From positions 1 through 64,000 of IMG/VR virus record IMGVR_UViG_3300021091_000014: DNA of 64,000 bases. One strand, written 5' to 3'. The stretch comes from a virus. The translations under genes were made by a program, and so were the position numbers. Below, piece by piece: positions 5,102-16,979 of this stretch. The notes beneath the pieces were generated by a model. It made no database searches. It was not told the DNA's origin and saw nothing but the letters and a program-made list of their open reading frames with translations. Within the stretch, counting starts at the first letter, position 1; every line of letters begins with the position of its first letter.

Positions 5102-5163
5102 ATAAGAATCATTCTTAACTAGACCCACAGCTAGCTGTGGATAAAGACCACGGCTCCTCGTGG
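5101..5163. repeat. regulatory cassette copy 1: AATAAGAATCATTCTTAAC palindrome + CCACAGCTAGCTGTGG + CCACGGCTCCTCGTGG
   Basis: Same elements recur at 11062-11157 and, partly, 17245-17285. Confidence 0.85.
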
Positions 5164-10009: not shown

Positions 10010-10180
10010 ATGATGGGGTTATTAGAGATTCTAAATGTGTTGTTGATTGGGTGGTTTGTGGGCTTTGTATCGTTTGCCTTTATTGATTGCTTTATGATTT
10101 CCCGCCGTATTCGGAAAGACCGTGAGCGGACGGATATGGAAATCGCTCGTATCAAAGCCGCACGTTCCGTAACGCGTTGA
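10010..10180 (+). CDS. small membrane protein, not in ORF track
   Basis: 56-aa ORF (MMGLLEILNVLLIGWFVG...) after AAGGAGA SD. Confidence 0.65.
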   Translation: MMGLLEILNVLLIGWFVGFVSFAFIDCFMISRRIRKDRERTDMEIARIKAARSVTR

Positions 10181-10205
10181 TCTTAATTAAGTAATAGCCT
10201 ACAAT
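10177..10205 (+). promoter_or_regulatory. early promoter TTGATC-17-TACAAT
   Basis: Spacing and consensus; ATG 6 nt downstream of the -10 suggests a leaderless mRNA. Confidence 0.65.
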
Positions 10206-10211
10206 TATATT

Positions 10212-10658
10212 ATGATTAAAGTATTAAAGCCAACAGATGAGTTTGACCAAGACCTGAAAGCCAGAGGTCTTCGTCGGACTCAGGAATTAGCCGATATCGT
10301 GGCAAGTGATACCGGTAAAAAAGACGCCGAGGGGAATCCGATCTATACCTTTGGCGGGGTGTATCGTCAGAAGATCGTTCCTATTGATAATGAAGTACCA
10401 CTTGTGAAGAAGAAAAGAGGAGCTGCTAGAATGAATGTTGAGCAAAATGTAGTAAAGGCCAAAGGTGCCGTGTATACCTTTAAGAAAGCCCCCCGTGAGG
10501 GTAGCAAGCTTTCAACCGCCGTTGGAATCGTTGGTGCCACCGGTAAAGATGATAAACCGGCCTGTATTAATGCCATTGCCACCACCATGGGTGTAACCAA
10601 GGGCAATGCCTCAATCTACTACGCCAAAGCCAAAGCCCTGATTGAGGCTGGCCTGTAA
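10212..10658 (+). CDS. early protein with C-terminal HTH-like motif (MGVTKGNASIYY)
   Basis: Motif shared with 17353 and 57478 ORFs. Confidence 0.7.
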   Translation: MIKVLKPTDEFDQDLKARGLRRTQELADIVASDTGKKDAEGNPIYTFGGVYRQKIVPIDNEVPLVKKKRGAARMNVEQNVVKAKGAVYTFKKAPREGSKLSTAVGIVGATGKDDKPACINAIATTMGVTKGNASIYYAKAKALIEAGL

Positions 10659-10699
10659 TTAGATTTAGATGGGGGAGGGGCGGTGATCCGCCTACTCTT

Positions 10700-11058
10700 A
10701 AACAACAGCAACTCGTCGGGAGACGCTCGGTGTGCCCCTTATAGATGACGCTTTTTTGGGGAAGTGGCGAGAGACCATTTGTGGATTGCGCCTACTTTTA
10801 AACGACTATGTGAAGTGCCCCTTACATAAACTCGTTGGCTCATCACCAACTAGTGTGACCCGCATGAAGGAAGTGGACTGATAATCCACGGGTGGTTCTG
10901 GTAGAAAGACCTACTACGGTGACGTAGTAGCCCAAACCTACCACATCGAAAGATGCCGTCTAACCGAACGGGCGTTGGCAATACGAGAATCTCCATAGTG
11001 GGCGAGTGGATGGAAGGCGAAAGCTATAGTTACCACGGCTATGGAGAAGCACCCTATT
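10700..11058 (+). ncRNA. candidate large structured non-coding RNA
   Basis: ORF-free, GC-richer segment with many stems and several GNRA tetraloops; boundaries approximate. Confidence 0.65.
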
Positions 11059-11061
11059 ACG

Positions 11062-11157
11062 AATAAGACTTATTCTTATCTCCAGGACCGCGGCCTAGCT
11101 ATCTCCTATCATCAAACCCCACAGCTAGCCGTGGTCCACCCCCACGGCTCCTCGTGG
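11062..11157. repeat. regulatory cassette copy 2: AATAAGACTTATTCTTATC + CCACAGCTAGCCGTGG + CCACGGCTCCTCGTGG
   Basis: Matches the 5101-5163 cassette. Confidence 0.85.
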
Positions 11158-11168
11158 TTTTTTGATAG

Positions 11169-11197
11169 TTGATTTTATTTCCTAAGAATTAGATAAT
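11169..11197 (+). promoter_or_regulatory. early promoter TTGATT-17-GATAAT
   Basis: Consensus and spacing. Confidence 0.7.
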
Positions 11198-11227
11198 TGA
11201 TGTATGATGAATAAAAAGGAGATATCA

Positions 11228-11545
11228 ATGAAGTTCACGAAATACGCCATCTACCAGCTTCCCTTTGAGAATGAGAATTCTCGGGATCTGTCGTTCATGA
11301 GTGCCTATCAGGTCCAAGAAATCAGTGATCAGTTCGAATTTGTAGCGATAATTGAAGCCCACTCCCTAGACCACGTCTTTCTGATTTCCAATTCTCCTAG
11401 TGGTGAGTTTGAAACCCTGATTGATCGAGTGCAGCCGATGCATTCCTTGTCCGTAGGTGACATTGTTCATAACCTCGATACGGATGAGACGTACGTAGTA
11501 GCAAACTATGGATGGTCAAAAATCGACATGAAGGAGTCTGTATAA
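11228..11545 (+). CDS. YodL-like domain protein
   Basis: YAIYQL...LDHVF..SN...HSLSVGDIV signature. Confidence 0.7.
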   Translation: MKFTKYAIYQLPFENENSRDLSFMSAYQVQEISDQFEFVAIIEAHSLDHVFLISNSPSGEFETLIDRVQPMHSLSVGDIVHNLDTDETYVVANYGWSKIDMKESV

Positions 11546-14243: not shown

Positions 14244-14471
14244 ATGAAAAAAACAGTTGCAATTCTAACAGCATTAATGTTCACAATGCCTGTTTTTGCT
14301 CAAACAAAACCAGCAGAAAAAAAAGAAGAAGCAAAGGGGGCGGTAAAACAACCTCCTCCCCCAAACATTCCTGAGCCAAAGCATGCTACCAAGCCTGCTG
14401 AAAAGAAAGATGTCAAGCCTGCAGCCAAACCAGCTGACAAGCCAGCAGAAAAGAAAGAAGCAAAGAAGTAA
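14244..14471 (+). CDS. exported K/P/A-rich low-complexity protein
   Basis: Signal peptide ending VFA; KPAEKK repeats; AAGGA SD. Confidence 0.7.
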   Translation: MKKTVAILTALMFTMPVFAQTKPAEKKEEAKGAVKQPPPPNIPEPKHATKPAEKKDVKPAAKPADKPAEKKEAKK

Positions 14472-14483
14472 TAAATAGTTTTA

Positions 14484-14770
14484 TGATCGTATGAAGTAGA
14501 TCAAAAGGTGTTCTGGACGGGGGTGCAAATCCCCCCACCTCCACCAAAAGGAACTTGATGCATCAGGTTTTTTTTGATGGGGGTGACTAGTTTCGACAGG
14601 GCAATGAGTAGAGAAATGGACGATCCGGCAATGTGAAAGCCGTTAGGGTTGAGACTTCTCGGCCAAAGAAACAAAACGTTAAACGCAAACGACGAAAGAT
14701 TTGCACTGGCAGCCTAAACGCTGACCGGAGTTTTTACCTGTTTTCCTTGGCAACAGAAAAAACAGGTTCC
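14484..14770 (+). ncRNA. ssrA: circularly permuted (two-piece) tmRNA, tag (A)ANDERFALAA
   Basis: T-arm and CACCTCCACCA end at 14546 precede the 5' end GGGGGTG at 14579; the acceptor stem pairs with G3:U70; tag ORF 14685-14717; hairpin and U-tract ~14737-14777. Confidence 0.92.
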
Positions 14771-14787
14771 ATTTTTTAGAGGACAAA

Positions 14788-15876: not shown

Positions 15877-15950
15877 GCCCTGTTAGTATAATGGTATTAC
15901 AGTGGATTTGTAATCCTCTAATGGCAGTTCAATTCTGTCACAGGGCACCA
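15877..15950 (+). tRNA. tRNA-Thr(TGT)
   Basis: GCCCTGT/ACAGGGC acceptor stem, loop TTTGTAA, encoded CCA. Confidence 0.9.
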
Positions 15951-15963
15951 TTAGGAGATTGTT

Positions 15964-16146
15964 ATGATTAAATACGTATTAATTATTTGGTTAGGAACTA
16001 TAGATAATTTTGCCGACTACGCAGAATTTTATTCGTACAAGGAATGTGAGGAGAAAAGAGCACAGGTTTTAAGAGCTCTTATTCAAGCACAATCTCAAAT
16101 GAATCTTACATGCAGGATCAGATATACAATGGAGGAAAAAAGATGA
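15964..16146 (+). CDS. hypothetical protein
   Basis: AGGAGA SD; two Cys. Confidence 0.6.
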   Translation: MIKYVLIIWLGTIDNFADYAEFYSYKECEEKRAQVLRALIQAQSQMNLTCRIRYTMEEKR

Positions 16147-16346
16147 GCGATGGAGGAAAAGGATCTTCTCCAAGACCACTCTCAGTAGACTTAGAAACGT
16201 TTGACAATAACTGGAATATGATTTTTAAGAAAAATAAGTGGGATCATTATAGTGATCTTCCCAACCCGGATGCATATAGTAACGATTATCAGGATATTTT
16301 GTCTACGGAAGATTGTGTTTTAGATGCGCTTGAAAAGAAACAATAA
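16143..16346 (+). CDS. small phage protein (MSDGGKGSSPRP)
   Basis: GGAGG SD; recognisable phage motif. Confidence 0.65.
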   Translation: MSDGGKGSSPRPLSVDLETFDNNWNMIFKKNKWDHYSDLPNPDAYSNDYQDILSTEDCVLDALEKKQ

Positions 16347-16358
16347 ATATTTTTACGG

Positions 16359-16387
16359 TTGAAGTAATTATCCGCTGTAGCTATAAT
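16359..16387 (+). promoter_or_regulatory. promoter TTGAAG-17-TATAAT for the tRNA cluster
   Basis: Consensus -10, 9 nt before tRNA-Arg. Confidence 0.7.
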
Positions 16388-16396
16388 CATAAGTAT

Positions 16397-16472
16397 CTGA
16401 CTGTAGCTCAGTGGATAGAGCAACAGCCTTCTAAGCTGTGGGGCGCAGGTTCGATCCCTGCCAGTCAGGCCA
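16397..16472 (+). tRNA. tRNA-Arg(TCT)
   Basis: CTGACTG/CAGTCAG stem, loop CTTCTAA, TTCGA T-loop, CCA. Confidence 0.95.
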
Positions 16473-16493
16473 TTTTTTAAATTAGGAGAAGTC

Positions 16494-16718
16494 ATGGAAA
16501 TTTTAATTCTTGCAGTTGTAGCTGTTGTCATCGGTGGTTGGATTTACATTCAATACAACAAAAAGGCCATTGATACTAACAAAGATGGAAAGGTCGATGC
16601 TGCTGAGGTAAAGGCTGCTGTTACAGCTGAGGTAAAAGAAGTAGCTAAGAAAGCTACTGCTAAAGCTAAGGTTGTTAAAGAAAAAGTATCTGCTGCTAAG
16701 AAAACCGCAAAGAAATAA
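16494..16718 (+). CDS. membrane-anchored protein with EF-hand-like loop and K/A-rich tail
   Basis: N-terminal TM; DTNKDGKVDAAE. Confidence 0.7.
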   Translation: MEILILAVVAVVIGGWIYIQYNKKAIDTNKDGKVDAAEVKAAVTAEVKEVAKKATAKAKVVKEKVSAAKKTAKK

Positions 16719-16724
16719 TCTTTT

Positions 16725-16809
16725 GCGGTTGTGGTGGAATTGGTAGACACAGCAGACTTAAAATCTGCCGGCGATAGCCGTGCCGGTTCGAGTCCGGCCT
16801 CCCGCACCA
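16725..16809 (+). tRNA. tRNA-Leu(TAA), two acceptor-stem mismatches
   Basis: GCAGA-CTTAAAA-TCTGC anticodon arm, long variable arm, CCA. Confidence 0.9.
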
Positions 16810-16902
16810 ATATTTTATTATGTTAATAATTATATCAAGATTTCTAGCTCTGGCCTTCTGCGTAAGCTTTTGGGTAGGTGTATTTTATTATTTTTTTTAT
16901 TA

Positions 16903-16979
16903 GGGCCCGTAGCTCAGCTGGTCAGAGCAGGCGACTCATAATCGCTTGGTCAGGGGTTCAAGTCCCTTCGGGCCTACCA
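16903..16979 (+). tRNA. tRNA-Ile2(CAT) (lysidine type)
   Basis: GGCGACTCATAATCGCT anticodon arm matches E. coli-type tRNA-Ile2; CCA. Confidence 0.88.

Follow-up and report, generated by a model that had tools for sequence, protein, structure and literature searches.

What is carried by a gap of 545 nucleotides (nt) between two protein genes of a large phage, when this gap is richer in G + C than the DNA around it and seems to encode no protein? The gap (10659-11203) separates the + strand open reading frames (ORFs) 10212-10658 and 11204-11545 of the window, i.e. the whole stretch of DNA analysed here, which is the first 64 kb (positions 1 to 64,000) of the IMG/VR record IMGVR_UViG_3300021091_000014, a phage of 156.6 kb with a CheckV completeness of 91%. 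A preliminary description, made from the sequence alone, had pointed to an ORF-free, GC-richer stretch at this place, and this was confirmed: the gap has no ORF of at least 50 amino acids (aa), and its GC content is 49-51% vs 37.8% for the whole window. The same description had proposed a single structured non-coding RNA of about 350 nt, transcribed from the + strand and starting at 10690. Its non-coding, structured and + strand nature was borne out by covariation and by folding energy, but the stretch begins at about 10663 and consists of three units from two families: two tandem copies of a three-way junction of about 85 nt (module 1) and one pseudoknotted RNA of about 225 nt (RNA-2). These are two widespread families of large uncultivated phages that are absent from RNA catalogues. 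The structure and the family status of both RNAs are very well supported, and we consider them close to certain. In our preferred reading, both would be accessory RNAs that are excised, remain stable and act in trans within the tRNA and translation programme of the phage, and a probability of about 0.6 is given to this statement taken as a whole.

The units and their parts, with the scores of the covariance models R1 (module 1) and R2 (RNA-2), are as follows.

10663-10747, + strand: module 1, copy 1 (R1, 70.6 bits, E 1e-15)
10671-10674 with 10735-10738, + strand: helix P1 of copy 1, GGGG with CCCC
10675-10697, + strand: hairpin P2 of copy 1
10698-10707, + strand: invariant joiner of copy 1, UUAAACAACA
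10714-10725, + strand: hairpin P3 of copy 1, CGUC-GGGA-GACG, followed by GUG
10750-10830, + strand: module 1, copy 2, in which P3 is absent (R1, 46.7 bits, E 1e-9)
10758-10761 with 10818-10821, + strand: helix P1 of copy 2
10762-10797, + strand: helix P2 of copy 2
10798-10806, + strand: joiner of copy 2, UUAAACGAC
10827-11054, + strand: RNA-2, 11 helices (R2, 132 bits, E 1e-41; single copy in the 157-kb genome)
10834-10850, + strand: hairpin A of RNA-2
10853-10856 with 10862-10865, and ACCC 10858-10861 with GGGU 10890-10893, + strand: pseudoknot core of RNA-2
10873-10889, + strand: hairpin B of RNA-2
10894-10899, + strand: invariant single strand GGUUCU of RNA-2
10899-10943, + strand: hairpin C of RNA-2
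10944-10955, + strand: hairpin D of RNA-2, with a GAAA loop
10956-10971, + strand: hairpin F of RNA-2, with the loop CUAACCGA
10973-10985, + strand: hairpin G of RNA-2, with the loop UGGCAAU
10990-10998 with 11039-11047, + strand: helix E of RNA-2, with an inner domain at 11006-11036
ending at 11054, + strand: tail of RNA-2, AAGCACCC

Folding energy alone is weak evidence for an RNA at this locus. When compared with shuffled sequences, the 369 nt flagged in the preliminary description gave a z-score of -2.94 on the + strand and -0.83 on the - strand; 120-nt windows taken inside 10690-11050 reached only -0.7 to -2.3, and the strongest values (-4 to -6.8) came from a terminator cassette at 11020-11200, outside the flagged stretch. 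As we read the comparisons, the decisive evidence is that of the related sequences and not that of energy.

The stretch was recognised as composite because a DNA search of five related phage records retrieved the core of module 1 alone. Within the stretch, the direct repeats CGCCTACTYTTAAAC and GTGCCCCTTA are spaced by 100 and 83 nt. A syntenic locus (L012), whose flanking genes belong to the same families (at 30% identity on the upstream side and 53% on the downstream side), shares with the gap only TTAAAC...CGTCGGGAGACG...GTGCCCC. A search pattern of 23 bases in three blocks was derived from the window and this syntenic locus, and it matched 18 IMG/VR contigs; all 18 have the GGGG run at the right place, although it was not part of the pattern, and also a variable hairpin upstream. 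The family was aligned (alignment A1) and folded with RNAalifold, which gave a consensus made of P1 (GGGG/CCCC), the variable hairpin P2, the joiner UUAAAC(A/G)AC, P3 with a GGGA loop, and then GUGCCCC. Compensatory changes were found at 7 pairs, in P2 and P3, and 96% of the alignment cells are paired vs 42-58% when the partners are slid. The covariance model R1 has exactly two matches in the whole phage genome, both being the tandem copies, and one match in each of four of the five related records. The family counts about 30 members, and the association of a full copy with a P3-less copy is kept in one other locus (L092, 1012-1117 and 930-1010). This alignment also revises one stem of the preliminary description, the hairpin AAGTGG..CCATTT at 10762-10780, which conflicts with the pairing seen in homologs, where AAGUGGCG (10762-10769) pairs with CGCCUACUU (10789-10797) as P2 of copy 2.

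A module-1-like variant, GGGGG / CAAAC / AUGUC-GGGA-UGACAU / CCCCC, was also noticed in four contigs (L047:2960-3170, L049:2975-3185, also L048 and L050), with an insertion of about 120 nt that contains a 21-bp hairpin, and with an intrinsic terminator behind; it was not detected by R1.

For RNA-2, the first homologs of 10832-11054 were found behind homologs of the 148-aa product of ORF 10212-10658 (L043, L044 and L045), with stems whose sequences had changed yet remained complementary. Further members were obtained with patterns built from the invariant blocks, which retrieved 18 viral contigs and 58 metagenome contigs, 54 of the latter being true members (members found by pattern include L051, L052, L054, L055, L058 and L061-L063). 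The family comprises about 70 loci and about 52 distinct sequences. A pattern scan for RNA-2 gave three GC-rich chance matches and nothing else in 185,579 species genomes. Twenty-nine distinct sequences were aligned (alignment A2) under a curated structure of 11 helices and 53 pairs: 94.8% of the cells are paired vs 77% in shuffled and 33-49% in slid alignments, compensatory changes occur at 33 of the 53 pairs, and none of 500 shuffles reached the observed values. R2 is a core model of 141 positions and not a full-length one.

For seven of the eight stems listed in the preliminary description, related sequences show compensatory mutations that preserve the pairing, and the stems listed within 10834-11047 are all among the 11 helices of RNA-2. 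Covariation in homologs was found for hairpin A (GTTGG/CCAAC), hairpin B (GTGGA/TCCAC), hairpin C (TGGTAG/CTACCA enclosing the 8-bp GTGA hairpin at 10911-10930), hairpin D (CATC-GAAA-GATG) and the long helix E around GGC-GAAA-GCT. The ACCC/GGGT pairing is invariant in A2, its sole support being a compensatory change to AUCC/GGAU in the divergent member of a complete 162-kb phage (G003); together with pair 10853:10865, which occurs as five types (GC, CG, GU, AU and UA), this pairing and its change in G003 led us to a pseudoknotted core. What had been described as a GCAA loop does have a stem, of 3 bp and covarying (hairpin G), but the loop is the 7-nt UGGCAAU and not a GNRA tetraloop. The + strand is marked by an invariant U-G pair and by many G-U pairs. 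A short form of RNA-2 lacks hairpins C and D. Nucleotides that are invariant and unpaired in the model are GGUUCU, AACC in loop F, UGGCAA in loop G, and GA.GAGAAG. According to the minimum free energy (MFE) fold, GGGUG is also able to pair with CACCC in the 3' tail, which may represent an alternative conformer. Two further features envisaged for RNA-2, a tRNA-like acceptor end and base pairing between its 5' leader and 3' tail, are not conserved. With compensatory changes found in both families, as the preliminary description had proposed to look for, both folds are maintained by selection.

Comparison with Rfam 15 (4227 models), which had likewise been proposed, was made at the gathering score over the window and at E<=10 over 10600-11260, and was extended to nine related loci; neither family had a match at either level, and the sole Rfam matches in the gap (E 2.4 and 8.7) concerned unrelated families. 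The earlier remark that hallmarks of RNase P, tmRNA (transfer-messenger RNA) and group I/II introns are missing agrees with this result, and so does its suggestion of a new class, both families being phage-specific. When the gap and two other RNA-2 members were compared by blastn with 50,697 GenBank phages, no match was obtained, and a literature search on the invariant words and on RNA motifs of phages, tRNA arrays and MazG genes returned nothing relevant.

The two families are frequently linked. In at least nine distinct loci (L043/L118, L078/L113, L051, L092, L075, L097, L085, L072 and L013), module 1 precedes RNA-2 on the same strand. It is directly adjacent to RNA-2 in L043/L118 and L078/L113, as in this window; a small ORF lies between the two in L092 and a MazG-like gene in L013. 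Each family has one locus per genome. Because the families recur linked yet separated by ORFs in L092 and L013, module 1 and RNA-2 are considered as independent modules that tend to travel together, and not as domains of one RNA.

Several neighbours of these RNAs recur. A gene for a MazG-like nucleotide pyrophosphohydrolase of about 90 aa adjoins module 1 or RNA-2 in L013 (815-1108), L051, L063, L092 (460-505) and L023/L024. Small ORFs of about 60-86 aa with a similar composition (G.FVV...K...FV) are found beside module 1 in L092 (760-915, - strand, between module 1 and RNA-2) and in L013 (374-634, + strand).

The surroundings of the RNAs in the window are given below, as they define the putative transcript.

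10177-10205, + strand: promoter-like site before the 148-aa gene (promoter scan)
10212-10658, + strand: 148-aa ORF upstream of the RNAs (ORF list)
11058-11141, + strand: spacer with the palindrome ACGAATAAGACTTATTCTTAT and a CCAC-N8-GTGG hairpin, part of a repeated cassette and outside both RNA families
11142-11163, + strand: intrinsic terminator CCACGGCUCCUCGUGG followed by UUUUUU (terminator scan; local fold z -6.3)
11162-11197, + strand: promoter-like sites TTGATA-16-AAGAAT and TTGATT-17-GATAAT, for the 113-aa ORF 11204-11545 (promoter scan)

The promoter scan gave no promoter-like site on the + strand between 10391 and 11162; the 148-aa gene and the RNAs are probably on one transcript, and the terminator at 11142-11163 is likely to be its 3' end. 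We propose that 10663-11054 would be transcribed as three structured RNA units in one + strand transcript, whose start would coincide with the 148-aa gene or lie upstream of it, and whose end would be this terminator. The module-1 copies and RNA-2 would then be stable accessory RNAs comparable to rnaC and rnaD of phage T4. In tRNA arrays, the tRNA-processing machinery would free them: RNase P, by cutting the following tRNA at its 5' end, would set the 3' end of RNA-2, and trimming of the CCA end of the preceding tRNA would set its 5' end. The RNAs would act free and folded, their invariant unpaired nucleotides (for module 1, UUAAACAACA; for RNA-2, GGUUCU and the loops with AACC and UGGCAAU) forming a compact tertiary core or a docking surface. 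A putative partner would most likely take part in the take-over of tRNA and translation during infection, since the neighbours are tRNAs, tmRNA and a MazG-like nucleotide pyrophosphohydrolase.

Among the observations in favour of this proposal is the genomic context of the relatives. RNA-2 has tRNAs within 1.6 kb, on its own strand, in 26 of 56 distinct loci. There, RNA-2 exactly occupies the interval left by two tRNA genes of its strand: the encoded CCA of the upstream tRNA ends 25-38 nt before the word GUGACCC, which itself stands 3-8 nt before hairpin A, and the next tRNA begins 2-10 nt past (A/G)AGCA in 15 of 18 cases. In the complete phage G003, RNA-2 fills the interval between tRNA-Met and tRNA-Leu of an array of 18 tRNAs. 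In the other loci, a start codon follows the end of RNA-2 by 10-25 nt, and the gene that it opens is often small and MazG-like (Pfam PF03819). Module 1 is located 12 nt ahead of tRNA-Pro in one locus (L017) and elsewhere precedes MazG-like, small membrane or uncharacterised genes.

Among known RNAs, the closest parallel is with the "small stable RNAs" annotated in T4, where rnaD starts 1 nt behind tRNA-Arg and is followed at 6 nt by rnaC. As here, rnaC (species 1) and rnaD (species 2) are two different structured non-tRNA RNAs in tandem, and their release by tRNA-processing enzymes is presumed, as for the RNAs described here. They adjoin tRNA genes on the same strand, which is true of the RNA-2 relatives and not of this window (nearest tRNA at about 4.8 kb), and their sizes are 119 and 139 nt vs about 85 and 225 nt. 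R1 and R2, run with filters off on T4 68000-74000, gave nothing over rnaC or rnaD, and on the whole T4 and RB69 genomes nothing better than E 0.28.

The preliminary description had also evoked a kinship with the GOLLD and ROOL classes, the first of which was initially found in lake metagenomes. The likeness holds for context, since tRNAs lie within 1.6 kb of RNA-2 in the loci counted above and often abut it, a feature that does not define membership; no link of sequence or fold was found, the GOLLD and ROOL covariance models having no match at E<=10 in 10600-11260 and none in five other RNA-2 loci. ROOL and GOLLD are pseudoknot-rich RNAs of phages or prophages, "often near tRNA islands" and with no assigned function or protein partner (bioRxiv 10.1101/2024.12.08.627333). 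They are far larger than the RNAs described here (about 580 and 800 nt vs 85 and 225 nt) and, unlike them, RNA-2 is not seen in bacterial genomes according to the species-genome pattern scan; nor is there any sign of self-assembly here.

Phage tRNA arrays serve to take over or protect translation, and the RNAs embedded in them (T4 rnaC/rnaD, ROOL and GOLLD) have lacked an explanation, for a long time in the case of T4. Two well-defined and strongly covarying RNA classes are now added to these: their boundaries are exact and their cores invariant, module 1 repeatedly precedes RNA-2, and tRNAs and MazG-like genes recur beside them. Their sizes of 85 and 225 nt suit probing, pull-downs, crystallography and cryo-electron microscopy, and make them a tractable entry to the function of accessory RNAs. 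If one of them binds tRNA, ribosome or RNA polymerase, this would mean that phages control their hosts at a new level, through RNA.

Several observations weigh against the accessory-RNA reading or limit the evidence for it. In this window the RNAs are not beside tRNAs, the nearest such genes being a tmRNA at 14433 and tRNAs from 15877, and their ends here must come from the terminator or from other nucleases. About half of the loci of each family stand 10-25 nt before a start codon, which fits a cis-acting leader too. The predicted helix P1 of module 1 never varies in the alignment, and GGUU and AACC of RNA-2, complementary and likewise invariant, would make a putative contact. The z-scores of the single units are modest (-2.4 for RNA-2, -1.4 and -0.8 for the module-1 copies).

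A bolder form of the accessory-RNA reading, in which module 1 and RNA-2 would jointly form a new trans-acting RNA system belonging to phage tRNA arrays and would act directly on the translation apparatus of the host, is doubtful as it stands and is put forward as speculation. The GGU of loop L15 of RNase P and that of the T-box bulge hold the 3'-CCA end of tRNA, and by analogy RNA-2 could hold this end via its invariant unpaired GGU(UCU). Alternatively, it could imitate the E-site segment of helix 88 of 23S rRNA, with which it shares GGUGGUUCUGA and AUGGAAGG, or it could be a new class of ribozyme that acts on tRNA precursors. The pairing of GGGUG with either ACCC or the 3' tail would then provide a conformational switch.

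The two shared words are invariant in RNA-2 (10890-10899 and 11010-11017) and adjacent in helix 88 of E. coli 23S (L130:4655-4673): the 11-mer GGUGGUUCUGA corresponds to 23S positions 2396-2406 and AUGGAAGG to 2407-2414, with E of about 0.25-1 and with different pairing partners. UAGUG..AUCCG precedes both, and the match is near chance level. RNA-2 as a mimic made of an rRNA fragment was rejected, R2 giving 9 bits at best against the E. coli rrn operon, where short words alone match.

The alternative that survives best, still an unlikely one, is a leader acting in cis: an antitermination element of the nut/rrn type or a riboswitch-like regulator would be formed by module 1, perhaps together with RNA-2, and by modifying RNA polymerase or translation it would allow the terminator at 11142-11163 or the next gene to be read. 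It applies mainly to module 1. In this module, single-stranded CUCUUAAACAA (10695-10705, at the joiner) agrees with the E. coli rrn boxA core CUCUUUAACAA (L130 129-140) at 10 of 11 positions and resembles the rrnH leader GCTCTTTAACAA; 8 nt past the joiner, P3 is a covarying hairpin (two covarying pairs) with a GNRA loop. The order boxA-spacer-boxB of phage lambda resembles this succession of joiner and GNRA hairpin. At a larger scale, module 1 lies between a promoter-proximal gene and a terminator, and the order promoter, small gene, element, terminator resembles PR-cro-nutR-tR1. One locus per genome, the many members that end 15-25 nt ahead of a ribosome-binding site, the benefit that untranslated tRNA/RNA arrays would draw from shielding against Rho termination, and the pairing of GGGUG of RNA-2 with ACCC or with CACCC of the 3' tail beside a ribosome-binding site, which could be a switch, are also in line with such a leader. 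However, 11-mers with at most one mismatch to boxA are expected about 5.6 times by chance in the window, the likeness is weaker in the largest module-1 clade, where the bases before UUAAAC differ (GUCA), and P3 is absent from copy 2. Furthermore, the three-way junction closed by P1 is foreign to nut/rrn antiterminators, as are the extra variable hairpin and the invariant GUGCCCC end to nut sites, no N-like protein was identified, and RNA-2 has no gene to regulate where it has tRNAs on both sides. A metabolite riboswitch is further opposed by downstream genes that are mutually unrelated (MazG-like, small membrane protein, uncharacterised proteins, tRNAs); the riboswitch candidate was rejected on such unrelated partners and on the lack of a conserved terminator or of a helix sequestering the Shine-Dalgarno sequence.

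Self-cleaving or otherwise catalytic RNAs, which would represent new ribozyme classes and cut the polycistronic transcript at tRNA/RNA/mRNA borders, are improbable. Small ribozymes beside phage tRNAs are known (theta ribozymes, hammerheads), and the placement of the present RNAs exactly at tRNA junctions or ahead of mRNAs, as well as their compact pseudoknotted cores with many invariant unpaired nucleotides, would suit such a role. Nevertheless, RNase P and tRNA 3' processing already account for these borders, no ribozyme family of Rfam 15 was matched at E<=10, and the sequences reveal no cleavage site.

One large RNA of the GOLLD/ROOL kind, of about 350-400 nt, is very improbable. The units are contiguous and probably co-transcribed, in agreement with the lack of a promoter-like site over 10391-11162 (+), the MFE fold of the whole region pairs distant segments, and the context is like that of GOLLD/ROOL. 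On the other hand, RNA-2 stands alone in tRNA arrays, four records with module 1 show no RNA-2 (all being fragments, 38-75% complete), the units are separated by ORFs in the two loci already mentioned, no pairing between units is conserved, and the GOLLD/ROOL models are unmatched.

It is hardly credible that the stretch is not RNA but a signal at the DNA level (operator, origin or packaging site), or that its hairpins arose by chance in degenerate sequence: the adjacent repeated cassette 11058-11160 does look operator-like, but compensatory changes occur in 40 pairs over the two families, G-U pairs would be A-C on the opposite strand, the energy signal is strand-specific, the orientation is fixed relative to tRNA genes, and covariation already contradicts this explanation.

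The 148-aa protein has 51 homologs, to which no Pfam or PHROG family was assigned, and it has no detectable relationship with a 144-aa protein whose gene lies before module 1 in another clade; MazG was the sole family identified by Pfam and PHROGs searches of the neighbouring proteins. A non-coding gap of 220-620 nt follows the 148-aa homolog in all loci fetched, and the slot behind this gene is an RNA island, which in L047-L050 holds the module-1-like variant with the large insertion. The 113-aa gene was of no use as an anchor, and the relatives reached through it are without the gap. In two loci (L044:592-830 and L045:1056-1250), a third conserved non-coding element replaces module 1 downstream of the homolog of the 148-aa gene; it reads GGUGACGGCUGCCAA...GAGCAGG..CGAGCCUGGG...UCCUAAAAACAGGCC, followed by a long hairpin, and has no Rfam match. 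In three others (L109, L121 and L143), a conserved non-coding stretch of about 190 nt with a T-arm-like hairpin, GGGCUUGAGUCCC, lies between RNA-2 and the next tRNA and may be another RNA of the array.

The cassette downstream of RNA-2 (11058-11160) consists of the palindrome AATAAGACTTATT, CCAC-N8-GTGG hairpins, a terminator and a promoter. It is repeated in the genome at 5124-5163, with 83% identity to 11118-11157, and the same cassette is present 3' of RNA-2 in L043, L044 and L046; it looks like a unit combining a DNA-level operator and a terminator.

Further downstream on the + strand, at 14433-14771, the window carries a circularly permuted tmRNA of the beta type (Rfam tmRNA_permuted 130 bits, beta_tmRNA 100 bits), whose tag is ANDERFALAA according to ARAGORN; this hints at a betaproteobacterial host. 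It is followed by four tRNA genes (Thr-TGT, Arg-TCT, Leu-TAA and Met-CAT) at 15877-16979, about 4.8 kb downstream of the RNAs and on the same strand.

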